Notes: generated by a model not told the origin, from the letters alone. Shown: positions 3,871 to 30,926, numbered from the stretch's first letter. The stretch is 32,000 nt of DNA from Candidatus Saccharimonadota bacterium (GCF_902713755.1 NZ_LR744089.1), one strand, 5' to 3'. Translations and numbers: made by a program.

Positions 3871-4317
3871 TTAGGATATAGTTATAATAATTTTATTGTT
3901 ATTTAAATTATTAATTTCATTATAAAATTTATTTTTTTTAACACAAATAATATATTTTATATTCTTTTTATTTATTCCTTTTAAAACTAAATTATTAACT
4001 ATAAAATTCATTCTATATTTATTTAAATATAAATTATATTTTATATTTCCTAAACCTATTGTATCAATTTTTAATAATATTTTTTTATTTGGATTATTAC
4101 GCATATATATAATATATTGATTTAACATATTATTAAATTTGTTATTAAAAAAATAAAGATCATAATTAAAATAAATATGTTTAATAAAAGGTAATTTATT
4201 ATAAAAAAATTCATTATTTAATTTAATATTATTAAAAAAAATAATATTATTTTTTTTTAATAAAATTAATATTGAAAATAATATTATTATTTTTTTTAAT
4301 ATATTTTTTTTGTTCAT
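3871..4317 (-). CDS. Degenerate OmpA-family / peptidoglycan-associated (Pal-like) protein with an N-terminal hydrophobic anchor
   Basis: 148 aa. The C-terminal ~100 aa aligns by eye to the OmpA-like domain of E. coli Pal. IYFNYDLY matches IVYFDLDKY, MRNNPNKKILL matches LRSNPSYKVTV, KYNLYLNKYRMNFIVNNLVLKGI matches [23 protein letters not shown], and the terminal NNKIIITI matches NRRAVLVY. The N-terminus has a hydrophobic stretch IIILFSILILL but no lipobox Cys. Its start overlaps the ruvC stop in an ATGA. Confidence 0.55.
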   Translation of the reverse strand: MNKKNILKKIIILFSILILLKKNNIIFFNNIKLNNEFFYNKLPFIKHIYFNYDLYFFNNKFNNMLNQYIIYMRNNPNKKILLKIDTIGLGNIKYNLYLNKYRMNFIVNNLVLKGINKKNIKYIICVKKNKFYNEINNLNNNKIIITIS

Positions 4318-4812: not shown

Positions 4813-6492
4813 TTATGAAGGTGCTCCTGTTAAATAACAAATCAATTTGTTGTTTTTAGGAAACGCAATAACATCTCTAATATTATTAGATTTTGTTAAT
4901 AACATTACTATACGATCTAAACCTAACGCTAACCCTCCATGTGGTGGTACAGCATATTTAAAAGCTTTTAAAAAAAAACCAAAATTTTTATTAATTTTTG
5001 TATAACTTAATCCTAATATTTTTAATATTATTTTTTGAATTTTTTCATCATTTATACGAATTGACCCCCCACCTAATTCAATACCATTAATTATTAAATC
5101 AAAAGAATTAGCAACAGATTGTTCTGGATTATATATTAATTCGTCTAATTTAGATTTAGGTGCAGTAAATGGATGATGATATGATGTTAAAATTCCTGAA
5201 TCATCACGTTTAAATAAAGGAAAATTTATCACCCATATAGGAGCCCATTGGTTGATATAAAGATTAAAATCTTTTGCTAATTTTGTTATTAACGCTGACA
5301 AGGAATTGTTTACAATATTTTTTTTATCAGCACAACACAAAATTATATCTCCATTTTTTATATGTAATTTTTTGATAAGGTTTTTGATAAATTCCTCTGT
5401 TATATTTTTTAAAATAGGAGATTTTAAACCATTTAAACCTAATTCTATATTGTAAAATTTTATCCATATTAACCCTTTTGCACCATATACTTTAACCAAA
5501 GTAATATATTTTTTAATTTGTTTAATAGATAAACACACACCCCCTTTTATTTTTATAGCGCCTATTCTGTTATTTTTACTTTTTTGTAATATATTTTTAG
5601 GCATTAAATCATCTATATCTTTTATCTTTATTGGAATTCTTAAATCCGGTTTATCTGTTCCATATTTTTTTATAGCCTCTGTATATTCTAGTTTTTTAAA
5701 TTCTGTTGAGAAATTTAAATTCAATATTTCTTTAAATAAATATTTTATCATATTTTCAATTATATTAATTATTGTTTGCGAGTTCATAAATGAAGTTTCT
5801 ATATCAATTTGTGTAAATTCTGGTTGTCTATCAGACCGTAAATCTTCATCTCTAAAACATTTAGCGATTTGATAATATCTATCTAAACCTGACAACATTA
5901 AAATTTGTTTATATATTTGAGGTGATTGAGGTAAAGCAAAAAATTTATTGAAATTTTTATGACTTTTTATAATAAAAGTACGCGCTCCTTCAACCGTAAG
6001 ATTGCTTAATATAGGTGTTTCGATTTCAATAAATTTATTAAAATTTAAAAATTTTCTAATTTTATGATTGATTTTAGAACGAAGAATTAACTTATTTATA
6101 TATTTTTTACGACGTAAATCAATATAACGATATTGAAATCTTAATTCTTCTTTAATTTTTTTATTATCATATATTTTAAACGGTAAAGTTATTGATTTAC
6201 TTAAAATATTTAATTCAATTATAAATATATCAATCATATTATTTTTTACAGGTCTTAATTTTATTAATCCTATTATTTTTATAATATATTCAGATTTTAT
6301 TTTTTTTGCTAACACAAAATTTGTAAAATCAATTTTTTTTGAATCAATAACTATTTGAATTATACCATACATATCACGTAAATCTATAAATAAAATTCCA
6401 CCATGATCACGAATTTTATTCACCCATCCGTATAACGTTACATAACTATTTATAAAATTTTGATTGACTTTACCACAATAATTAATACGCAT
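4813..6492 (-). CDS. aspS: Aspartyl-tRNA synthetase (class IIb)
   Basis: 559 aa. Motifs [26 protein letters not shown] and GLALGLDR. The N-terminal OB fold begins YCG...VTLYGWV. Confidence 0.95.
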
Positions 6493-6573: not shown

Positions 6574-7920
6574 ATGAAAATTAATAATATTATTCCTAAA
6601 TTATTTAAAGCTTTATCAAAAAAAGATTATAAAAAAATAAAAAGTTTATTAAAATATTTTCGTTCAGCTGATATTGCTGATATAATTTCACTGAAATCAA
6701 ATAAATTCATAATACAAATATTAAATAGTCAAAACTCCAAAAGAAAAGCTGATATTTTTTCTTATTTACCAAAAGATAAACAACTTGAAATTACTAAAGA
6801 ACTTAATAATGAAGAAATAATAAAAATTTTTGTAAAAATGAATTCTGATGATAGTGCTGATGTATTTAATATGTTTGAACCAATACGTAGAGAAAATATT
6901 TTACGTAGTATGGCAAATAAAGTTAGAGAAAATATTAGAAAACTTTCTAGTTATGAAGATGGAACTGCTGGTGCTATTATGACATCAAATTATGTTGTTA
7001 TACCTGAAAATATCAATGTATTAAAAGCGTTAAACAAAATCAAACAAACGGCACCAGATGCAGAAACCATTTATCAAATATATGTATTAGATAAAAATCA
7101 AAAATTAACTGGAACATTATCATTACGTCAAATTATTTTAGCTAATCCTATTGCTTTAATAAAAGATTTAATGATAAAAGATGTAATATATGTTAATACC
7201 AATTCAAAACAAGAATATGTAACTAAAATGATTTCACATTATGATTTTTTAGCCATACCTGTAATTAATTCTGAACATAAATTAGTAGGCATCATTACAT
7301 ATGATGATGCTATGGATGTTGTCGAAAGAGAAACAACAGATGATTTTCATAAATCAGGTAGTGTAGGTACTTTAGAATATAATATTGTTCGTACAAAATT
7401 ATGGACGTTATATAGTAAACGTATATTTTGGTTAGTTTTATTAATTTTTGGTAATTTATTTTCTGGAGCTGGAATATCACAATATGAAGATACCATTTAT
7501 TCTAAAATATCTTTAGTTTTTTTCTTACCTTTATTAATAGGTAGTGGGGGTAATGCTGGATCACAAGCAGCTACTCTTATGATAAGAGGTTTAGGTACAG
7601 GAGAAATTAACATTAAAGATTGGGCTAAATTAATGAGTAAAGAATTATTAGTTTCCGGAATATTAGGTTTCACAATGGCCATTGTAATATATCCAATTGG
7701 ATATATTCGAGGAGGAATCGAAGTAGCATATTCTGTAGCGATTAGTATGATAATCATTGTTATTATAGGTAGTTTACTTGGTATGTCGTTACCTTTTTTT
7801 TTAAATCGATTAGGATTCGATCCTGCTGCTGCTAGTGCTCCTTTAGTTGCTACTTTATGTGATTCACTAGGAGTTTTAATTTTTTTTTCTATAGCAACAT
7901 TAATACTTAACGTCAACTAG
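6574..7920 (+). CDS. mgtE: Magnesium transporter MgtE
   Basis: 448 aa. It has an N-domain, tandem CBS region (TAGAIMTSNYVVI, LAIPVINSEHKLVGIITYDD) and a C-terminal TM domain with GGNAGSQ. The TAG stop is followed immediately by an in-frame TAA. Confidence 0.92.
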   Translation: MKINNIIPKLFKALSKKDYKKIKSLLKYFRSADIADIISLKSNKFIIQILNSQNSKRKADIFSYLPKDKQLEITKELNNEEIIKIFVKMNSDDSADVFNMFEPIRRENILRSMANKVRENIRKLSSYEDGTAGAIMTSNYVVIPENINVLKALNKIKQTAPDAETIYQIYVLDKNQKLTGTLSLRQIILANPIALIKDLMIKDVIYVNTNSKQEYVTKMISHYDFLAIPVINSEHKLVGIITYDDAMDVVERETTDDFHKSGSVGTLEYNIVRTKLWTLYSKRIFWLVLLIFGNLFSGAGISQYEDTIYSKISLVFFLPLLIGSGGNAGSQAATLMIRGLGTGEINIKDWAKLMSKELLVSGILGFTMAIVIYPIGYIRGGIEVAYSVAISMIIIVIIGSLLGMSLPFFLNRLGFDPAAASAPLVATLCDSLGVLIFFSIATLILNVN

Positions 7921-11035: not shown

Positions 11036-12616
11036 TTAAGTTTTTAAACTTATAATCTTATTAAACACTAAATTATTTTTATTATAATCATATCTATCAG
11101 CACAAAAATAACCCACTCTTTCAAATTGTACTTTTGTTTCAGGTTTTATATTATCTAATATAGGTTCACATATAGATTTAGTAATTTTTAAAGAATTTTT
11201 ATTAATATTGTTTTTTAATAAATTTTTATAATGACGTATTTCAACTTTTACCCCATGTTTCACACTTACCCAATGAATTACTCCTTTTATTTTTTTTCCT
11301 TCAAGATTTTTATTTTTAGTATTTAAATAAACAATACCTTGGATTTCTTTTATCTTTTTATTTTTCAAATAAATAATTTTCTTACATTTTATTATATAAG
11401 AATGACGTAAACGTACTTTTGTTCCTAGCGATAATCTAAAAAACTTTTTTTTTGGACTACTATTAAAATCATTTAAATCTATCCAAATTTCTCTATTAAA
11501 AAATAAACTTCTAGTACCCATTTCTATAAACGGATGATTTCTAACGTTAATTAATTCTTCATAATCTACAATTAAATTCGTTAATACTAATTTTATTGGA
11601 TTAATTACACACATTACTCTACTAACTTTATTTTCTAAATCAGAACGTATAACATAATATTGCATATTTATATCTATAATATTATTTGATCTTGTGATCC
11701 CTGTTATTTTACATAATTTATTTAAAGACGATGGAGTATAACCCCTACGTCTCATTCCCGAAACCGTTGATAATCTAGGATCATCCCACCCACAAATAAT
11801 TTTTTTATCTATTAATAATTTTATTTTTCTTTTAGAAGTTAACGAATAATTTATATTCATTCTAGAAAATTCTATTTGTTTTGGATATTTTAATTTATTA
11901 TTTAAAATATTTTTAATAAACCATTGATATAACTTTCGATTATTTTCAAATTCTAATGTACATATTGAATGTGTTATTCCTTCTAATATATCAGATTGAC
12001 CATGAGTAAAATCATAAGACGGATATATTTTCCATTTATTTCCAGTTCTATAATGATAAACGTTTATAATACGATACATTATAGGATCTCTTAAATTGAT
12101 ATTCTTAGATTTCATATCAATTTTTGCACGCAACACTTTATTACCTTCTTTAACAAAACCCTTATACATTTTTTTAAATAAAAAAATGTTGTCTTTTATA
12201 CTACGATTTCTATAAGGACTATTATATCCAAAGGATTTAAAATCACCTCTATATTTTTTTATTTCTGTTATAGATAAATCATCAACATAAGCATTACCTT
12301 TTTTTATTAACAATAAAGCCCATTCATATAATTTATTAAAATAATTAGAAGCATAATAAATATTATGAAATTTATATCCTAACCAATGGATATCTTCTAA
12401 AACAGAATTAATATATATATTATTTTCTTTAATAGGATTCGTATCATCAAATCGAATATAACATTTTCCATTAAAATATTTTGATAAACTATAATTTACC
12501 CATATTGCTTTAACATGACCAATATGTAAACAACCATTGGGTTCAGGAGAAAACCTAGTAATAATTATTTTTTTAAACATAATTCGATTTGTTATTTCTT
12601 TAATAATTTTTATCAT
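11036..12616 (-). CDS. glnS: Glutaminyl-tRNA synthetase
   Basis: 526 aa. TRFSPEPNGCLHIGHVKA (HIGH) and LTSKRKI (the MSK-type motif), with GlnRS-like overall length. The ATG at 12616 overlaps the aroE stop by 17 nt. An internal Met at 12580 is an alternative start. Confidence 0.93.
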   Translation of the reverse strand: MIKIIKEITNRIMFKKIIITRFSPEPNGCLHIGHVKAIWVNYSLSKYFNGKCYIRFDDTNPIKENNIYINSVLEDIHWLGYKFHNIYYASNYFNKLYEWALLLIKKGNAYVDDLSITEIKKYRGDFKSFGYNSPYRNRSIKDNIFLFKKMYKGFVKEGNKVLRAKIDMKSKNINLRDPIMYRIINVYHYRTGNKWKIYPSYDFTHGQSDILEGITHSICTLEFENNRKLYQWFIKNILNNKLKYPKQIEFSRMNINYSLTSKRKIKLLIDKKIICGWDDPRLSTVSGMRRRGYTPSSLNKLCKITGITRSNNIIDINMQYYVIRSDLENKVSRVMCVINPIKLVLTNLIVDYEELINVRNHPFIEMGTRSLFFNREIWIDLNDFNSSPKKKFFRLSLGTKVRLRHSYIIKCKKIIYLKNKKIKEIQGIVYLNTKNKNLEGKKIKGVIHWVSVKHGVKVEIRHYKNLLKNNINKNSLKITKSICEPILDNIKPETKVQFERVGYFCADRYDYNKNNLVFNKIISLKT

Positions 12617-20513: not shown

Positions 20514-21385
20514 TTAAAGCTTTTTTATAATATACATAGTAGCACTACGTGAACTATTGTTATAAATAATTTCTTCTGTATTAGGATATAATTTATATTT
20601 AAATAAATTATTTAATAATTTATTTTTTTTTATTACTTTTTTTAATAATTTTGATTCTAAAGAATTAAATGTAATAATTATTAAATTTTTATTTTTATTT
20701 AAAATTTTGAACGATGAATTAATTAATAATTCCATATTTTGTAATTCATTATTGATATAAATACGTATAGCTTGAAAAAGCTTTGTTGCTGGATGCTTAT
20801 TTTTTTTTAAGTGTTTTTGTTTTATCAGATTTGATAATTCTAAAGTCATTTTAAATGGATATTTAATCCTACGTTTACATATTTTTTTTGTAAGTCTATA
20901 TGAATCTTTCTCTTCTCCATATGTTTTTAATATTTTTAAAATTTCGTTTGATTTATAATTATTTAAAAACTCAAAAGCTGGTATACCTAATTTATTATTT
21001 ATTCTCATATCTAAAGGACCATTTATATAAAAACTAAAACCTCTTTTATAATCTTTAATTTGATTTTTAGAAATTCCTAAATCTAAGAGTATACCTGATA
21101 CTTTTCCAAAAAATTTTTTTTTATAGCAATACTTTCTAAATAACTAAAATTAGTATTAATTAAATTAAACCTTTTATCCAAAAGTAGTCCTAATTTTTTT
21201 GCCAAAATTTTTGTATTTAAATCATTATCTATTGCTATTAATTTACCTTTTTTAGATAATCTATTTAAAATTTTTTTACTATGTCCCCCCAAACCAAAAG
21301 TACAATCTATATATATACCATCTTTATTAGTTATTAATAAATCAATAGCTTTATTTAAAAATAAACTTTTATGAATCTTATTCAT
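20514..21385 (-). pseudogene. rsmH: 16S rRNA m4C1402 methyltransferase RsmH (MraW), interrupted by a frameshift in an A9T6 homopolymer
   Basis: The N-terminal ORF 21083-21385 carries the SAM-binding region (YIDCTFGLGGHSKKIL, IAIDND). The C-terminal frame is open over 20514-21143 and encodes the conserved GKVSGILLDLGISKNQIKDYKRGFSFYINGPLDMRI...HPATKLFQAIRIYIN. The two frames overlap at 21083-21143, which contains the tract A9T6 (minus strand; plus 21108-21122). One extra A or T restores a single frame (..AIKKKFFGKVSGILLDLG..). Confidence 0.88.
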
Positions 21386-22577: not shown

Positions 22578-23222
22578 TTATATTATAGAAATTAATAATT
22601 CTATTAATGGATTTATATATTTATATTTTATAATCATTGATGTTTTATTTACAATTAATCTGGTACTAATATTTGTTATTAATGTTTTTGGTTCCATTCC
22701 ATTTTCTTTTAATGTATTCCCTGTATCAACTATATCTATTATTTCATCTGCTAAATTCATAAGTGGAGCTAATTCCATCGCACCATATAATTTTATTATA
22801 TCTGCTTTAATACCTTTACTTGCATAATATTTTTTTGCTATATTTAAAAATTTCGTTGCTACTTTACGGGTTTTATTTTTTACATTAAATCCAATTAAGC
22901 CTGCTGTCATTAGTCTACATTTAGAAATTTGAAAATCTATCGGTTCATATAATCCTTTAGATCCATTTTCTAACAAAACATCCTTACCTACAATTCCCAT
23001 ATCGGCTGCACCTAATTTTACATAAGTAGGTACATCTATAGCTCTTAAAAATATTAAATTTAAATATTTTTTTTTAGTATTAAATAATAATTTTCTATTA
23101 TTTTCTATAGAATCAATAGGTATTATACCAGCTTTTTTTAATAACGATAAACTTTTTAAAAGTATACGTCCTTTTGATAAAGCAATTACTAAAGGCTCTA
23201 TCATATATTTTTTTATAACCAT
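22578..23222 (-). CDS. hisG: ATP phosphoribosyltransferase, short form (HisG-S)
   Basis: 214 aa. Motifs IALSKGRIL, DMGIVGKDVL and DIVDTGNTLKENG. The short length implies dependence on HisZ. The start may be the second Met (23204). Confidence 0.88.
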   Translation of the reverse strand: MVIKKYMIEPLVIALSKGRILLKSLSLLKKAGIIPIDSIENNRKLLFNTKKKYLNLIFLRAIDVPTYVKLGAADMGIVGKDVLLENGSKGLYEPIDFQISKCRLMTAGLIGFNVKNKTRKVATKFLNIAKKYYASKGIKADIIKLYGAMELAPLMNLADEIIDIVDTGNTLKENGMEPKTLITNISTRLIVNKTSMIIKYKYINPLIELLISII

Positions 23223-23282
23223 TTTTATATTAAATTTAATAATATTATATTATATAATAATATTATTTTAAGGAAAAGGTTC

Positions 23283-23540
23283 ATGAAAATTAATATTTTA
23301 TCTAAATTAAATATAAATGATGTTAATTTAAAAACTTTAAAAATAAATATAAACTTACTATTAAAAAATTTATTTATTATTAATTTAATAAATATTAAAC
23401 CTATTACAAATCCATTAAATCATAATTATTATTTAATATTACGAAAAGATAAAATAAAAAAAAATAAAAAAATTAATAATTATATTGAATCTGCACCTAA
23501 AAAAAATAATTATTATATAACAATTCCTAATATTTTATAA
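23283..23540 (+). CDS. gatC: Asp/Glu-tRNA amidotransferase subunit C
   Basis: 85 aa. It sits immediately upstream of gatA and gatB. The pattern ..L..INLLLKNL..INLINIKPITNPL......LRKDKI...AP matches the GatC layout. An AAGGAAAAGG Shine-Dalgarno precedes the ATG. Confidence 0.8.
   Translation: MKINILSKLNINDVNLKTLKININLLLKNLFIINLINIKPITNPLNHNYYLILRKDKIKKNKKINNYIESAPKKNNYYITIPNIL
23457..23489 (+). repeat. 33-bp exact direct repeat, copy 1 (in gatC, in frame, encodes KKNKKINNYIE)
   Basis: AAAAAAAATAAAAAAATTAATAATTATATTGAA is identical to 25574-25606. Both copies begin at codon position 1 of their genes. Confidence 0.95.
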
Positions 23541-23547
23541 AATTTAT

Positions 23548-24969
23548 ATGACAATCATTGATATTATAAAAGGATTAAAAAATAAACATTTTTCTTGTTA
23601 TGAATTAATAAACTTTTTATTAAATAAAATAAAAAAAAACAATAAATATTTAAATTGTTTTATAACTATTGAATATAAAAATGCTTTAAAAGAAGCAAAA
23701 AAATGTGATTTTTTACGCAATTTTAATCAAAATAATGTATTACATGGAATACCTATAGCTTATAAAGATCTATTTTGTACAAAAGGTATTAAAACAACTT
23801 GTGGTTCTAAAATGTTAAAAAATTTTATTCCAACGTATAATTCTACTATTATTGAAAAATTAAAACATTATGGTCTTATAAATTTAGGTAAAACTAATAT
23901 GGATGAATTTGCAATGGGTTCTTTTAATGAAAATAGTTTTTTTGGACTAGTAAAAAACCCTTGGAATATCAAATTAGTATCAGGTGGATCTTCTGGAGGA
24001 TCCGCTTCTGCTATATCTGCTGGATTAATACCAGCTTCTTTAGGTACTGACACAGGAGGATCTATAAGATTACCTTCTTCTTTTTGTGGTATTACTGGTT
24101 TAAAAACTAGTTATGGTTTTCTGTCAAGATATGGTATTATCTCTTATTCATCTAGTTTAGATCAAGCTGGTCCAATGGCTCATACAGTAAAAGATTGTGC
24201 AATATTATTAAATATAATTTCTGGTTATGATAAATGTGATTCCACAAATATAAACTTACAAAATGATGATTATTTAAAATATATAAATAATTCTATAAAA
24301 GGAAAAAAAATAGGATTACCAATAGAATACTTTAAAAATATAAATTACAAATTTTCTTATATAATACAAGAAGCAATAAACGTTTATACAAAATTAGGTA
24401 TAAAGTTTTTTGATATTAGTTTACCTTATATTGAATCAGCTATTTCCGCTTATTATATTATAGCCTCTGCAGAGGCAGCTTCTAATTTAGCAAAATATGA
24501 TGGTATAAAATATGGTTACTATAAAATAAATCCTAAATCTTTAGAAGATCTATATATAAATACTCGTACAAATGGATTTGGTAAAGAGGTAAAAAATCGT
24601 ATTTTAATAGGAACATATTTATTAAATAATTATTTTATAAAAGCAAAAAAAATTAGAAAAATCATTTATAATAATTTTATAAAAAGTTTTAAAAAAGTTG
24701 ATTGCATTTTTATACCTACAACAAATTCTATCGCTAATCAAATTCATACAAAAAAAAATAATATTTTAAATATACAACAAGATCTTTATACAATATCAGT
24801 CAATTTAGCAGGTTTACCTGCTATAAATATTCCAATAGGGTTTATTAATAAATGTCCTGTTGGTTTACAAATAATAACACCTCATTTTACTGAACAATTA
24901 TTATTAAATATAGCTCATTGTTACCAAAAAAATACACATTGGCATTTAAATTATCCAAATATTTTATAA
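23548..24969 (+). CDS. gatA: Asp/Glu-tRNA amidotransferase subunit A (amidase)
   Basis: 473 aa. Amidase signature GGSSGGSASAISAG and TDTGGSIRLPSSFCG. Confidence 0.95.
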   Translation: MTIIDIIKGLKNKHFSCYELINFLLNKIKKNNKYLNCFITIEYKNALKEAKKCDFLRNFNQNNVLHGIPIAYKDLFCTKGIKTTCGSKMLKNFIPTYNSTIIEKLKHYGLINLGKTNMDEFAMGSFNENSFFGLVKNPWNIKLVSGGSSGGSASAISAGLIPASLGTDTGGSIRLPSSFCGITGLKTSYGFLSRYGIISYSSSLDQAGPMAHTVKDCAILLNIISGYDKCDSTNINLQNDDYLKYINNSIKGKKIGLPIEYFKNINYKFSYIIQEAINVYTKLGIKFFDISLPYIESAISAYYIIASAEAASNLAKYDGIKYGYYKINPKSLEDLYINTRTNGFGKEVKNRILIGTYLLNNYFIKAKKIRKIIYNNFIKSFKKVDCIFIPTTNSIANQIHTKKNNILNIQQDLYTISVNLAGLPAINIPIGFINKCPVGLQIITPHFTEQLLLNIAHCYQKNTHWHLNYPNIL

Positions 24970-24982
24970 GGTTATATAACTA

Positions 24983-26401
24983 ATGTTAAATAAATGGGAA
25001 ACTATTATTGGTATAGAAACTCATATACAATTATCCACAAAATCTAAATTATTTTCTAAATCTTCTACAAAATTTTGTTTATATCCTAATAAACAAATTT
25101 GTAATTTCGATATAGGTATGCCTGGGGTCTTACCAATCTTAAATCAAACAGCTATAGATATGGCTATTCGGTTTGGTTTAATTATAAATACTAAAATTTA
25201 TAATCAAGCTATATTTGAAAGAAAAAATTATTTTTATCCAGATTTACCTAAAGGATATCAAATTAGTCAAAGAAAAAAACCAATTTTAGGATCAGGAAAA
25301 CTTACAATCAAAAATAAAACTTTTTATATAGATCATATAAATTTAGAAGAAGATGCCGGTAAATTATTACATATTTTTTCACATAGTGCAATTGATTTAA
25401 ATCGTGCAGGTATACCGTTATTAGAAATAATAACTAAACCTTGTATATTAACTTACAATGAAGTTATAAGTTATGTAAAATATATTAATAAGATAGTAAA
25501 ATATATAAATATATCTGATGCAGATTTATCAAAAGGTTCAATGCGTTGTGATATAAATATATCTATAAGAAACAAAAAAAATAAAAAAATTAATAATTAT
25601 ATTGAAATCAAAAATTTAAACTCTTATAAATATATTAAATGTGCAATTTTATATGAAACTAAAAGACAAATAAATATTTTTAATAAAGGTGGTAAAATAA
25701 TTAAAGAAACTCGTTTATATAATTTCAAAAAAAATAAAACTTATACTTTACGAAAAAAAGAAAATAAAAATGATTATTTATATTTAAATTGTCCTGATTT
25801 ATTAGAATTAAATTTAAACAACAAATTTATATTAAAACAAAAAAAATTTCTACCTGAATTACCTCATATTAAAATAAAAATTTTTATACAATTAGGATTA
25901 TCATATAAAGAAGCTGAAATATTAACTAATACTTTAGATATAGCAAATTTTGTTGAAAAAACTTTTAAAATTTGTAAAGATATTCATTTAACTTCTATAT
26001 GGATAAGATGTTATCTTTTTGAAAAATTAAAATTTTATTATTTAAATATAACACAAAACCCAATAAAACCCAATTTATTTGGTAAATTATTATTTTATAT
26101 AAAAAGCAATATTATCAATCATAATATTGCTAAAATTATTTTTAAGAAATTTTGGAAAAAAAATAATAATATAGAAATAGAAATTAATAAATTAAAAAAA
26201 GAACAAATAAATGATAATAACTTATTAACAATTATAAATTTCACATTTCAAGAAAATATATTAAAAATCATATTATATAAAAAATCCAATTTAAAAAAAA
26301 AGAAAAAAATATTAAATTTTTTAATAGGTCATGTTATAAAAAAATCAAATAATAAAGCAAATCCAAAACAAATTAATTTTTTAATAAAAAAATTAATATG
26401 A
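24983..26401 (+). CDS. gatB: Asp/Glu-tRNA amidotransferase subunit B
   Basis: 472 aa. Motifs ETIIGIETHIQL, MPGVLP, NLEEDAGK, DLNRAGIPLLEI and EIKNLNS. The TGA stop overlaps the crtI ATG. Confidence 0.94.
   Translation: MLNKWETIIGIETHIQLSTKSKLFSKSSTKFCLYPNKQICNFDIGMPGVLPILNQTAIDMAIRFGLIINTKIYNQAIFERKNYFYPDLPKGYQISQRKKPILGSGKLTIKNKTFYIDHINLEEDAGKLLHIFSHSAIDLNRAGIPLLEIITKPCILTYNEVISYVKYINKIVKYINISDADLSKGSMRCDINISIRNKKNKKINNYIEIKNLNSYKYIKCAILYETKRQINIFNKGGKIIKETRLYNFKKNKTYTLRKKENKNDYLYLNCPDLLELNLNNKFILKQKKFLPELPHIKIKIFIQLGLSYKEAEILTNTLDIANFVEKTFKICKDIHLTSIWIRCYLFEKLKFYYLNITQNPIKPNLFGKLLFYIKSNIINHNIAKIIFKKFWKKNNNIEIEINKLKKEQINDNNLLTIINFTFQENILKIILYKKSNLKKKKKILNFLIGHVIKKSNNKANPKQINFLIKKLI
25574..25606 (+). 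repeat. 33-bp exact direct repeat, copy 2 (in gatB, in frame, encodes KKNKKINNYIE)
   Basis: Identical to 23457-23489. A third partial copy (21 bp, TAAAAAAATTAATAATTATAT) lies in crtI at 26613-26633, also in frame (KKINNYI). Confidence 0.95.
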
Positions 26402-27858
26402 AAAATATAATAGTAATTATTGGATCTGGTTTTGGTGGTATAGCAGCTGCTTTAAGAGCTAAAAAAAAAGGATTTGATGTCATAATAATAGAACGTAATA
26501 AAAATATTGGTGGAAAAGCGCAAATCTATAAAGATAATAATTTATTATTTGATACTGGTCCTACAATTATTACAGCACCTTATTTATTTGAAGAATTGTT
26601 TAATATTTTTGGTAAAAAAATTAATAATTATATAAATTTTATAGAATTAAAAAATTGGTATAAGTTTTATTTTTTTGATAAAACTACATTTAATTATTGT
26701 AACAATTTAACAAAAACTAAAAATAATATAAAAAATTTTTCACAAAAAGATCTCGAAAGTTATAATAAATTATTATTAATTACAAAAACATTTTTTGAAG
26801 TTTGTTTTAAAAGGTTTTCAAACAAACCAAATAATAATATTTATCAAATGATAAAATGTATACCTAATTTTATTAAATTAAAATGTTATAATTCATATTT
26901 TTATTTAATTAATCATTTTATAAAAAATAATAAATTAAAACAAATTTTTTCTATTTATCCTTTATTAATAGGAGGCAATCCTTATAAAGTTTCTTGTTTA
27001 TATTCATTAATATTATATTTAGAACGTAAATGGGGTATACATTTTCCTAAAGGAGGTATAGGATATTTAATACAAAAATTAGAAATTTTAATGCGCGAAG
27101 AAGGTATTAAAATATACACAGGTGTAAGTGTTAAAAAAATTATTACACATAAAAAAAAAGCAATATCAATTATATTAAATAATAATCATTATATTAATAC
27201 TAATTATATTATATCAAATATTGAACCTAGATATTTATATAAAAATATTATTAATATTCAAAATAATTTATTTATAAAAAAAAAATTATCCAACTTAGAA
27301 TATTCTATTGGATTATTTATATTATATTTTGGTACTAATTGTTTTTATTCAAATATTTCTCATCATACCATATTTTTTAATAATCATTATAATAAATCAA
27401 TCAAAAATATTTTTTATAAAAATTGTTTTAATAAAAAAAATATTTGTATTTATTTACATCACCCAACTAAAACTGATCATTCTAGTACTCATTCTATTTT
27501 TTATGCATTAATCCCAGTACCTAATTTAAAACTTTATAACAATTGGTCAATGTATGAAAGTGAAAAATTTGTTCAATCTATAATAGCAATATTAGATTCA
27601 AACTTATTACCCAAATTAAAAAAAAATATAATAACATGTTTTTATATTACACCAACTTTTTTTAAAGAAAGATATTTTAGTACATATGGTAGTGGTTTTT
27701 CCATTTCTCCTAATTTTAATCAAATATCATGGTTTAGATTTCATAATAAATCCGAAAACATAAAAAATCTTTATTTAGTAGGAGCTGGTACACATCCTGG
27801 TGCTGGAATACCAGGGGTTTTATTAAGTGCTAAAATAATAGATAAATTAATTATATGA
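26398..27858 (+). CDS. crtI: Phytoene desaturase (CrtI type, FAD-dependent)
   Basis: 486 aa. N-terminal dinucleotide fold IVIIGSGFGGIAAALRAKKKGFDVIIIERNKNIGGKA. C-terminal CrtI signature NLYLVGAGTHPGAGIPGVLLSAK. It sits next to crtB and crtY. Confidence 0.9.
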   Translation: MKNIIVIIGSGFGGIAAALRAKKKGFDVIIIERNKNIGGKAQIYKDNNLLFDTGPTIITAPYLFEELFNIFGKKINNYINFIELKNWYKFYFFDKTTFNYCNNLTKTKNNIKNFSQKDLESYNKLLLITKTFFEVCFKRFSNKPNNNIYQMIKCIPNFIKLKCYNSYFYLINHFIKNNKLKQIFSIYPLLIGGNPYKVSCLYSLILYLERKWGIHFPKGGIGYLIQKLEILMREEGIKIYTGVSVKKIITHKKKAISIILNNNHYINTNYIISNIEPRYLYKNIINIQNNLFIKKKLSNLEYSIGLFILYFGTNCFYSNISHHTIFFNNHYNKSIKNIFYKNCFNKKNICIYLHHPTKTDHSSTHSIFYALIPVPNLKLYNNWSMYESEKFVQSIIAILDSNLLPKLKKNIITCFYITPTFFKERYFSTYGSGFSISPNFNQISWFRFHNKSENIKNLYLVGAGTHPGAGIPGVLLSAKIIDKLII

Positions 27859-28709
27859 ATAAAAACTTTTTTAAAAAATCAACTAAAATAGTAAAAGTTT
27901 ATAGTAAAAATTTTTACTTTACAAGTTTATTTATCAAAAAACAATATTCTACATATATAAAAATAATGTATTTAATTTGTAGAACTCTTGATGAAATTGC
28001 TGATAACAATTATTTAGCTTCTAAAAAAAAATCATTAAAAAGATTAAATTTAATTTTAAAACAACTAAAAAATAAGTATAACAAAAAATTAGATAAACTT
28101 TCGTTTTTAATAAAATTTTTAAAAAAAAATACATCAATAAATATAAAGTTTTTTATTGATTTAATTCAAGTTTTAATAAAAGATATAAAATATCCAGCTA
28201 ATATAAAAAATGAAAAAGAATTAATATATTATTGTTATGGAGTTGCTGGAACTATAGGAATCTTGATTTTACCGATTATAAAATGTTCTATAAATAATAC
28301 TCTTAATGCAATACATTTAGGCATTTTTATGCAACTAATTAATATTGCTAGAGATGTATTAGAAGACGCTTTTAAAGGTAGACGTTATTTACCTGCATCC
28401 TGGCTTAATAATATAAGTGCAAAAGAAATTATTTATTTATCTAATATCCCTATAAATAAAAAACATAAATTAATTAATCATGCTATTATTAAAATACTTA
28501 ATTTATCTCATTATTTTTATAATAAAGGTATAAATAATATTTATAAATTAAACTATACAAATCGTCTTTTTATAAAAATAATTAGTTCAATATATTATAA
28601 AATCAATATAAATATACGTAATTCAACCAACAATTGGATATATAAACGTATATATATATCTTTATATTATAAAATATTTATAACACTAAAAAATATTTTA
28701 ATATGTTAA
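27855..28709 (+). CDS. crtB: Phytoene synthase (squalene/phytoene synthase family)
   Basis: 284 aa. Both Asp-rich motifs are present (YLICRTLDEIAD and NIARDVLEDAFKGRRYLP), plus YCYGVAGTIG. It has an ATGA overlap with crtI. Confidence 0.88.
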   Translation: MNKNFFKKSTKIVKVYSKNFYFTSLFIKKQYSTYIKIMYLICRTLDEIADNNYLASKKKSLKRLNLILKQLKNKYNKKLDKLSFLIKFLKKNTSINIKFFIDLIQVLIKDIKYPANIKNEKELIYYCYGVAGTIGILILPIIKCSINNTLNAIHLGIFMQLINIARDVLEDAFKGRRYLPASWLNNISAKEIIYLSNIPINKKHKLINHAIIKILNLSHYFYNKGINNIYKLNYTNRLFIKIISSIYYKININIRNSTNNWIYKRIYISLYYKIFITLKNILIC

Positions 28710-29836
28710 AAACTGACATAGATATATTAATTTTAGGAGGGGGATGTACTGGTTTATCTTTAGCATATTATTTAAGTTTTTTACCAAATAACTTTAACAT
28801 TTTAATTATTGAACATAAAACATTATATAATAATGATAAAACATGGTGTGGTTGGAGAACAAAAAACCATGCATTTATAAAATGTTGCAAAACCTTTTGG
28901 TATTCTTTTTATATAAAAAAAGCAAACCCATATTATTCAATAATAAATTCTTCTATTCCATATGAATATATTAGATCAATAATTTTTTATAAAACAATTC
29001 TTAATCGAATACAAAATATTTATAATATACAATATTATAATAATAAAATTATAAATATAACAGAATATAAAAATTATATATCAATAAAATTAAATAATGG
29101 AAAATATAAAAATGCGCGGTGGGTAATAGATACTATACCTAAACAAATAAAAATTTATTCACCTTGGAAATGGCAAACTTTTTTTGGTATAGAATTATAT
29201 TCTAATAATATTTTTAATTTTTTTTCAAAACCATATTTAATGAATTTTTATATAAACAAATATTTAAAATATAACAACTTTAATTTTATTTATATACTAC
29301 CAATAAAAAAAAATAAATTTTTATTTGAATGGACTATTTTTTCTAATAAAGATATTTTTATTATAAATAATTTATTAATATTTTATATCAATCTTAAAAT
29401 AGGAATATATAATTATCAAATTTTAAGAAAAGAAACAGGACATATACCAATGGCAAATATAAAAAATAAAACAAAAATCAATAATTTAGCTAAATTATAT
29501 GGCTGTTATATACGTACATCAAATGGTTTTTCATTTCATGAAATTCAAAACTGGGCTATAAAATGTGCTTATAATATTTCAATTAATAAAAAAATTATCC
29601 TACCAAATATTCCTTATTTTTTTATATTTTTAGATTATATTTTTATGAAAACCATTGAAATATATCCTACTATATCTTTAGTATTATATACTAATATATT
29701 TTATAAAATAAATTCTAATTCTTTAATTTATTTTTTTACAAATACTTCTAAAATATTAGATATATTAAATATTTTATTTTTTATAAAACCTAAATTGTTT
29801 TTATTATATACAATATTTATGAACTTATTTAAATAA
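28703..29836 (+). CDS. crtY: Lycopene beta-cyclase (CrtY type)
   Basis: 377 aa. N-terminal [18 protein letters not shown] dinucleotide motif. Length and position after crtI-crtB fit CrtY. It overlaps crtB by 7 nt. The sequence is very divergent and AT-driven, so the assignment rests partly on context. Confidence 0.78.
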
Positions 29837-30926
29837 TATCCATTAATTGTTCTGATTTAAATTCATTAATTAATGAATTTATTATTTCATCTAAATTACC
29901 AGAAATAATATTGTTTAAATCATAAAGTGTTAAATTTATTCTATGATCTGTTACACGTCCTTGTGAATAATTATAAGTACGAATCCTTTCTGATCTATCT
30001 CCTGAACCAATCAATGATTTTCTTATTTTTGTTTGTTTTTTTTGAAATTCATCTTTATATTTTTGTTTTAATTTTGCTTTTAATAATAAAATAGCTTTAG
30101 ATTTATTTTTATGTTGAGATCTTTCTGTTTGACATTCAACAACTATATTTGTAGGTATATGAGTAATTCTAACAGCAGAATCAGTAGTATTTACATGTTG
30201 TCCACCTGCTCCACTAGATCTATAAGTATCTATTCTTAAATCAACTGAATTAATTTTTATATTTAAATCTTTTTTTATTTCAGCCATAACAACTACAGTA
30301 CAAGCAGAAGTATGTATTCTACCTATAGATTCTGTATCAGGTATTCTTTGTACTCTATGAGTACCAGATTCAAATTTTAATTTACCATATATACCATATC
30401 CTTTAATTCTTAAAATAATTTCTTTAAACCCCCCATATTCTCCTGAATTAAAACTAATTACTTCAATTTGCCATTTATTTTTTTCAGCATATTTATAATA
30501 CATTCTAAATAAATCACCAGCAAAAAGCGCAGCTTCTACCCCTCCTGTACCAGCACGTATTTCTAAAAAAACACCATTTTTATCTTCTTTTTCTTTATTA
30601 TAATTTTTTATATAGTTAATAACATCTTTAATATTTAATTTTAAATTAAATAATTTACTTGTTATATTTTTTATTTCTTCATTTATTAAGTTACGTAAAT
30701 CTAAATCATTTTCATTATATATTTTTTTATTATAAATAAGTTCTACTTCTAAAGTTTTATATGTTTTCCATAAATGTACTAATTTTTCTAAGTTTGAATA
30801 CTCACGTGAATATTTTATATATTTATCTTTTTTATAAATAATTTCAATTTTAGAAAGTAAAATAGATAAATTATAAAATTTTTTTTCAAGTTTATTTAAA
30901 TAATAACGTACGTTATTTTTTATCAA
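29829..30926 (-). CDS. prfA: Peptide chain release factor 1
   Basis: 365 aa. GGQ motif ([20 protein letters not shown]). The RF1-type P-x-T decoding tripeptide sits in [18 protein letters not shown], with no SPF motif. It overlaps crtY by 8 nt (convergent). Confidence 0.94.

Follow-up and report, generated by a model that had tools for sequence, protein, structure and literature searches.

The carotenoid genes crtB, crtI and crtY are said to have been described in Candidatus Portiera aleyrodidarum, a whitefly symbiont, by Sloan and Moran (2012, Biol Lett) and by Santos-Garcia et al. (2012, J Bacteriol), and Portiera was reportedly, in 2012, the first bacterial endosymbiont reported to supply carotenoids to an animal. 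In this work we analyzed a stretch of 32,000 nucleotides (hereafter the window) in which these genes follow those of the Asp/Glu-tRNA amidotransferase GatCAB, in the string gatC-gatA-gatB-crtI-crtB-crtY (23283-29836, plus strand). CrtI (deposited as CAA3707752.1 / WP_180824911.1) and CrtB of the window are 100% identical to deposited Portiera proteins, and the window belongs to a genome already published, that of Portiera PeMo, whose host is the whitefly Pealius mori (LR744089; 277,700 bp; Santos-Garcia et al. 2020, PMC7821994), where the crt genes are annotated. A first-pass annotation made from the sequence alone had guessed that the organism was Portiera and that the trio was probably not undescribed. 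Both guesses were right: the proteins are identical to deposited ones, the annotation of the genes is public, and the carotenoid trait is in the literature. The core finding, a carotenoid trio in Portiera, is already known.

In published accounts, all Portiera strains make carotenoids from host geranylgeranyl diphosphate (GGPP) (PMC5322561; PMC4438442), GGPP is listed as an input from Bemisia tabaci (PMC4438442), the bacteriocytes show increased levels of host transcripts for GGPP synthesis (PMC4607527), and carotenoid synthesis is an ancient function of Portiera under purifying selection (PMC5322561; PMC4607527; PMC7643613; PMC4438442). The published crtB-crtI-crtY locus is the one studied here, with identical genes and an identical reading, from host GGPP to carotenoids. 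The Portiera papers that we searched, a set that excluded the 2012 Biol Lett paper, carry no mention of the overlap between gatB and crtI, of synteny with Kushneria or of a deletion of crtE and a regulator.

The same three genes without crtE are also present in another reduced insect symbiont, Candidatus Profftella armatura (crtB-crtI-crtY; PMC7643613). In contrast to those of Portiera, they are plasmid-borne, Pantoea/Enterobacterales-like (46-58% identity), regarded as acquired independently (PMC7643613) and not located beside gatCAB. The order crtI-crtB-crtY, with overlapping or abutting open reading frames (ORFs), is shared with the rhodopsin-linked crtE-crtI-crtB-crtY-blh clusters of marine proteobacteria and with SAR11-like contigs. 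There, the end product is retinal and not a host carotenoid, whereas blh or rhodopsin beside the cluster is absent in both Portiera and Kushneria. In the SAR11-like contigs L005, L006 and L007 (crtI at 7001, 5784 and 7001, respectively) the genes are arranged as atpBEFF'-crtI-crtB-crtY-blh-ispH; the gaps measure 14-19 nt, and crtE is not found next to them. These contigs are a second case, in a streamlined genome rich in AT, of crtIBY placed directly after an essential operon.

The gatCAB-crt contact was probably inherited and later compacted

We consider it probable that the contact between gatCAB and the crt genes was inherited and later compacted by deletion, and that crtB, crtI and crtY encode working enzymes acting on host GGPP; within this account we infer the co-transcription, the coupling, the host control and the deletion history. 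The closest arrangement outside Portiera was found in the free-living Halomonadaceae species Kushneria phosphatilytica (CP043420, L008) and K. sinocarnis (RBIN01000006, L010). In both, mreB on the minus strand is followed, all on one strand, by gatC, gatA and gatB, a helix-turn-helix (HTH)/cupin regulator (PuuR-like, 157 bits, 202 amino acids), a polyprenyl synthase of GGPP type in the position of crtE (307 amino acids), crtI, crtB and crtY. Strand, gene order and the place of gatCAB upstream of the crt genes are the same as in Portiera, while the regulator, the polyprenyl synthase and two spacers of 117 nt and 209 nt between gatB and crtI are found in Kushneria only. From the gatB stop to the crtI start there are 1,858 bp in Kushneria, compared to -4 bp in Portiera. 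The crtB/crtY overlap of Kushneria is 4 nt. Both genomes differ widely in composition (60-65% GC in Kushneria, about 21% in the window, in places cited as 20%), and their Crt proteins are 29-41% identical. In spite of this difference in composition, when clusters of Kushneria, of rhodopsin-linked type and of SAR11-like type were compared, Kushneria gave the best scores with Portiera CrtB (183 bits) and CrtY (242 bits), the latter at 30% identity over its full length.

Since free-living Kushneria has gatCAB and the crt genes at one locus, their adjacency would predate the symbiosis. Furthermore, Portiera GatB is full length at its C-terminus against Kushneria GatB, and because this end is complete the deletion would have taken only intervening DNA. 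Portiera most likely deleted the stretch with the regulator and crtE, and such a deletion would explain both the gatB/crtI junction and the missing GGPP synthase. According to this scheme, a Halomonadaceae-like ancestor would have carried gatC-gatA-gatB, a PuuR-like HTH/cupin regulator and crtE-crtI-crtB-crtY on one strand; the regulator, crtE and the spacers, about 1.86 kb in all from the stop of gatB to the start of crtI, would then have been lost through genome reduction, after which the crtI ATG would have come to lie on the gatB TGA. In Kushneria, the 209-nt spacer ahead of crtE holds the sole promoter-like site of that region, a weak indication that the ancestral crt cluster may have had its own promoter. 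In the window, Pfam scans detected no polyprenyl synthase, and tblastn with Kushneria CrtE, run against the window only, returned chance matches (E of at least 3.6) and no remnant of crtE or the regulator, in agreement with the earlier statement that the window has no GGPP synthase. Comparison with Kushneria would thereby show where the GGPP synthase formerly stood, how it disappeared, and why the pigment genes touch the gatB stop.

Current NCBI taxonomy places Portiera under Johnevansiales/Johnevansiaceae (SeqCode) and not under Oceanospirillales/Halomonadaceae; the position of Kushneria as a close free-living relative rests on older literature together with the synteny and similarity found here.

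Junctions between gatC and crtY

The string is formed by gatC (23283-23540, an ORF call; 85 amino acids, divergent), gatA (23548-24969; amidase subunit of the amidotransferase), gatB (24983-26401), crtI (26398-27858; phytoene desaturase, 486 amino acids), crtB (27855-28709; phytoene synthase, 284 amino acids, with a C-terminus shorter than in free-living homologues) and crtY (28703-29836; lycopene cyclase, 377 amino acids), all on the plus strand. Read base by base, the gaps are +7 nt between gatC and gatA and +13 nt between gatA and gatB. Downstream of gatB the genes overlap: gatB and crtI by 4 nt (ATGA, 26398-26401, where the gatB stop TGA at 26399-26401 is shared with the crtI ATG), crtI and crtB by 4 nt (ATGA, 27855-27858) and crtB and crtY by 7 nt (28703-28709). 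The first-pass annotation had this same-strand string, its coordinates and its overlaps exactly right, with 13 nt as the largest gap. Its description of the genes as translationally fused does not hold, as they are separate ORFs in which gatB, crtI and crtB have their own stops and neighbours lie in different frames (gatB 2, crtI 1, crtB 3, crtY 2). Fusion at the protein level across gene boundaries was rejected: there is no continuous frame and each ORF is stopped. The two ATGA motifs and the 7-nt overlap have the stop/start geometry typical of translational coupling, and no Shine-Dalgarno (SD)-like motif was found ahead of crtI, crtB or crtY; gatB, crtI, crtB and crtY would at most be coupled.

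At the 3' boundary, crtY overlaps by 8 nt (29829-29836) with the convergent prfA (release factor 1; 29829-30926, minus strand), an ORF call whose orthologues have PCRF and RF-1 domains. Overlaps of 8-26 nt between crtY and prfA also occur in other Portiera lineages, and prfA starts with TTG in the window, as it does in L001-L004 (described below), the four lineages in which its start was checked.

Conservation across Portiera lineages

The block hisG (minus strand), gatC-gatA-gatB-crtI-crtB-crtY, prfA (minus strand) and prs is common to six Portiera lineages, that of the window and five others: the symbionts of Singhiella simplex (L001), B. tabaci (L002), Aleurodicus dispersus (L003) and Trialeurodes vaporariorum (L004, CP004358), and a metagenomic lineage (L013) in which the upstream region is rearranged. 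The 4-nt gatB/crtI overlap is identical in all five (L001-L004 and L013), and the junction TAATATGAA is invariant in five lineages (the window and L001-L004). These six lineages cover both whitefly subfamilies, which split 125-135 million years (Myr) ago or more (PMC5322561; PMC7821994). In addition, the gatCAB-crtIBY string is still gap-free in the symbionts of B. tabaci and S. simplex, with intergenic shares of 30% and 40%, respectively (PMC7821994).

In the T. vaporariorum symbiont (L004, 9458-9570), crtB has lost its reading frame within a T9 homopolymer, AAAAATTTTTTTTTACAAG, and a single additional T would restore it. Because of this frameshift its annotation begins at an ATT codon and comprises 247 amino acids. 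Two explanations are considered for the frameshift, an error in sequencing the homopolymer and a genuine lesion that transcriptional slippage rescues.

CrtI, CrtB and CrtY as carotenoid enzymes

CrtI matched the model TIGR02734 (crtI_fam) with 404.7 bits over residues 5-485 (cut-off 238.1) and the structure of Pantoea CrtI (4DGK) over its full length (333 bits, residues 6-481). On translation it contains the motif GSGFGG for binding of flavin adenine dinucleotide (residues 9-14, 26422-26439), an instance of the N-terminal GxGxxG that the first-pass annotation had noted, and the C-terminal signature GAGTHPGAGIPGV (residues 462-474, 27781-27819), whose class pattern is GAGTHPGAG(I/V)PGV. CrtB was assigned to the Pfam family SQS_PSY (PF00494; 112 bits, cut-off 26). 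Its two Asp-rich motifs were also reported correctly, DEIAD at residues 46-50 (27990-28004) and DVLED at 167-171 (28353-28367), and they align with those of CrtM, as do the YCYGVAGT and QLINIxRDV blocks. CrtY matched Lycopene_cycl (PF05834; 109 bits, cut-off 23.4) over residues 7-293 and has the expected dinucleotide-binding motif, GGGCTG (residues 12-17, 28736-28753). Of the sites invariant in 7-8 free-living homologues, CrtI retains 116 of 162, CrtB 36 of 47 and CrtY 37 of 44, and most of the changes at invariant sites were conservative (V to I, L to F, R to K). The catalytic motifs, whose loss would have contradicted the earlier reading, are retained in all three proteins.

An identity of CrtB with HpnC or HpnD was rejected. 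All named CrtB homologues are phytoene synthases or generic members of the phytoene/squalene synthase family, none being HpnC or HpnD; the nearest named match outside Portiera is that of Kushneria, and the homologues inspected sit between crtI and crtY. In comparisons with PDB entries, CrtB scored 25 bits against HpnC vs about 60 bits against CrtM. For CrtY, the word-based search returned only Portiera and one other sequence, no PDB relative was found by sequence search, and an AlphaFold2 model from a 7-sequence alignment (mean predicted local distance difference test score, 38.8) was too poor for a fold search; CrtY was assessed with homologues taken from crt loci.

The gene identities support the pathway proposed earlier, from GGPP to phytoene, lycopene and a cyclised carotene. 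CrtB would use the C20 substrate GGPP, as suggested by the flanking CrtI and CrtY and by crtE in the Kushneria cluster. CrtI would take phytoene to lycopene in four desaturation steps; beta-zeacarotene has been mentioned for B. tabaci (PMC5322561), which would imply some cyclisation of neurosporene.

Gene packing and selection

The first-pass annotation had also argued that pigment genes hard-wired to gatCAB imply strong selection. This argument fails, because unrelated genes are packed just as closely throughout the window and the adjacency would be inherited. Genes occupy 97.9% of the window, similar to the coding density of 96.6% published for the P. mori Portiera genome (PMC7821994). Same-strand junctions of at most 13 nt number 19 of 22 in the window, the median spacing outside the cluster is 7 nt, and unrelated neighbours overlap as well (aroE/glnS by 17 nt, ruvC/orf148 by 4 nt). 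The identities of the crt genes are beyond chance; the tightness of their junctions is unremarkable. Selection appears better shown by the ORFs kept intact in six lineages from both whitefly subfamilies, together with the retained catalytic motifs.

A predicted gatCAB-crtIBY transcript

The sole non-coding stretch upstream of the six-gene string is the divergent spacer between hisG and gatC (23223-23282, plus strand; 60 nt); it is a candidate for the promoter and the ribosome-binding site of all six genes. It contains a -10-like TATAAT (23253-23258) and, for gatC, a conserved SD-like AAGGA (23270-23274); its block TTTAAGGAAAAG is invariant in all six Portiera lineages, and its block TATATTATATAAT is retained in five of the six. 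These features suggest that the spacer acts as a promoter. A consensus scan of 22900-30100 detected no terminator-like site at the gatB/crtI junction, and the only terminator-like hairpins on the plus strand (27795-27816 and 24019-24035) are both inside coding sequence. The former has 8 pairs and a T-rich tail, lies in the HPGAGIPG codons of crtI about 40 nt ahead of the crtI/crtB overlap, and probably reflects no more than the coding sequence itself.

A single gatCAB-crtIBY message would start in the hisG-gatC spacer, and the crt genes, which have no SD of their own, would be translated by termination-reinitiation at the overlaps. With the regulator, the promoter region and the GGPP synthase probably gone, crtIBY would be expressed constitutively as the tail of the gatCAB message and the flux would be set by the host supply of GGPP, which the three enzymes would turn, once imported, into cyclic carotenoids. 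A stronger version, in which one deletion-driven collapse removed the GGPP synthase, the regulator and the promoter together and left crtIBY as a constitutive, coupled tail of an essential operon with its output governed by the host, is put forward tentatively, with chances that we judge to be slightly below even.

Alternative explanations

Several results weigh against the account preferred here, and they concern its origin, the enzymes and the transcript. The best matches of CrtI outside Portiera are AT-rich SAR11/Pelagibacterales-like proteins (44-48% identity), including those of L005, L006 and L007, and in neighbour-joining trees of CrtI, CrtB and CrtY (11 taxa, with long branches and a shared AT bias) Portiera CrtI grouped with the SAR11-like proteins in 100% of the bootstraps, also after Dayhoff recoding. 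Taken with the SAR11-like contigs, in which crtI-crtB-crtY without adjacent crtE come straight after the essential atp operon, this could mean that the crt genes came by horizontal transfer, for instance from a SAR11-like donor rich in AT, with insertion behind gatB in an ancestor of Portiera. We regard such a transfer as very improbable, given that the scores of CrtB and CrtY with Kushneria are about double those with SAR11-like proteins, and that in two Kushneria species crtEIBY shares the strand of gatCAB and lies only one gene further downstream, an arrangement that would be highly improbable as a coincidence in a 3.6-Mb genome. The trees of CrtY and of recoded CrtB place Portiera with Kushneria and L009 (a rhodopsin-linked, gammaproteobacterial-type cluster). 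Additionally, the GC content is 21% in the Portiera window and about 28% in the SAR11-like L005 and L007, a shared AT-richness that favours artefactual attraction. The grouping of CrtI is most likely a compositional or long-branch artefact, and a mosaic origin of the crt genes is conceivable; synteny was weighted above the trees in view of their sampling and composition bias. The ancestral synteny itself comes from two species of one free-living genus, and neither it nor the deletion history is mentioned in the literature searched, outside of which lies the 2012 Biol Lett paper that may have noted the synteny. As for the enzymes, CrtB reached only 67-82 bits with the NCBIfam CrtB models (cut-offs 480-550) and its top model was HpnD with 91 bits, while CrtY reached 31.1 bits with TIGR01789 (cut-off 215.2) and 58.7 with TIGR01790 (cut-off 209.5). 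Kushneria CrtB and CrtY, within a crtEIBY cluster, miss the same cut-offs (CrtB 148 vs 480, with HpnD at 140; CrtY 59 and 94 bits), and because these genuine proteins also fail, the equivalog cut-offs were dropped as a test. Selection was compared between genes by crude Nei-Gojobori (NG86) ratios of nonsynonymous to synonymous substitution rates (dN/dS) between Portiera lineages, whose absolute values are biased upward by the near fixation of synonymous sites at A/T (dS of only 0.06-0.5 across roughly at least 100 Myr). The ratios were 0.31-0.50 for crtI, 0.34-0.86 for crtB and 0.40-0.56 for crtY, compared to 0.40-0.55 for gatB, 0.18-0.29 for gatA and 0.07-0.13 for prs; most crt pairs lie at 0.3-0.56, and the 0.86 of crtB belongs to the PeMo-TeVa pair. 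The crt genes thus appear to be under purifying but only moderate selection, similar to gatB. The crtB value of 0.86, the frameshifted crtB of T. vaporariorum (CP004358) and the model scores of CrtB and CrtY would fit decaying relics, or a CrtB that is a squalene-type (HpnC/HpnD) synthase, with no C40 carotenoid made. We give this hardly any credence: the ORFs are intact in six lineages, CrtB keeps both Asp-rich motifs and most invariant sites, its named homologues and the PDB scores point away from HpnC/HpnD, and the flanking CrtI and CrtY make sense only with a C40 substrate.

Regarding transcription, the promoter and terminator scans of 22900-30100, with 67 promoter-like sites compared to 89 expected from shuffled sequence, are uninformative at 20% GC; an internal promoter within gatB may exist. 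The crtIBY genes could then be transcribed from their own promoter in the 3' part of gatB, since -10/-35-like sites abound at this GC content, among them plus-strand sites within gatB at 26142-26170 and 26240-26268. The overlap would in that case be mere compaction, devoid of any regulatory link to gatCAB, and functionally unrelated genes of the window do meet at junctions as tight as this one. We hold this to be rather unlikely. Promoter-like sites are fewer than in shuffled sequence, so that none is individually credible; in addition, conserved non-coding sequence is confined to a block ahead of gatC, and the string stays gap-free in those Portiera genomes with 30-40% intergenic DNA. A different question is whom the pigments serve. 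They might mainly benefit the symbiont, by membrane reinforcement or as antioxidants in a cell that makes no lipids, without being provisioned to the insect. In line with this, no carotenoid exporter has been demonstrated, a ditE-like candidate having only been proposed (PMC4438442), and the sequence specifies no export; on the other hand, carotenoid in B. tabaci has been attributed to Portiera (PMC5322561), no carotenoid genes of the insect have been found (PMC4438442), and roles in host and symbiont are not mutually exclusive. A mainly symbiont-serving role therefore seems unlikely to us, to a degree slightly greater than for a separate crt promoter.

GatCAB and other features of the window

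GatA scored 520 bits with TIGR00132 (cut-off 481.1) and is 49% identical to Kushneria GatA, and GatB scored 495 bits with NF004014 (cut-off 414). GatC, with 33.1 bits, is under the cut-off of TIGR00135 (47.1); its gene is kept ahead of gatA and gatB in all Portiera compared and in Kushneria. gatC evolves by far the fastest of all genes in the block (57-78% amino acid identity between lineages, NG86 dN/dS 0.7-1.6), and it has been listed among relaxed or adaptive genes with omega of at least 1 (PMC7821994). Alongside gatCAB, the window encodes a GlnRS-type synthetase (11036-12616, minus strand; tRNA-synt_1c and both C-terminal anticodon-binding domains) and an AspRS of bacterial type (4813-6492, minus strand), and because of these GatCAB is probably kept for the formation of Asn-tRNA(Asn) rather than Gln-tRNA(Gln).

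At 20514-21385 (minus strand), rsmH (mraW) is split into two ORFs of 100 and 164 amino acids by a frameshift near 21083-21110, and the downstream frame continues upstream through the conserved GILLDLG...GPLDMR motif. In other Portiera the rsmH orthologues are single ORFs of 292-385 amino acids. Three pseudogenes have been reported in this genome, and the split gene probably counts among them, unless slippage rescues it. Lastly, an ORF of 148 amino acids without Pfam match (3871-4317, minus strand) shares 4 nt with the end of ruvC; judging by its position, it could represent a degenerate ruvA.

Implications

This work modestly refines what was known of the Portiera locus: it adds a probable ancestral synteny with later loss of crtE and the regulator, it shows that the junction is invariant, and it corrects both the fusion and the selection argument. 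The locus also warns that overlaps in a genome that is 97-98% coding do not by themselves signal selection. If a deletion did turn the pigment genes into the tail of an essential operon and leave their precursor to the insect, the host would have come to control a product of its symbiont through a simple genomic change.

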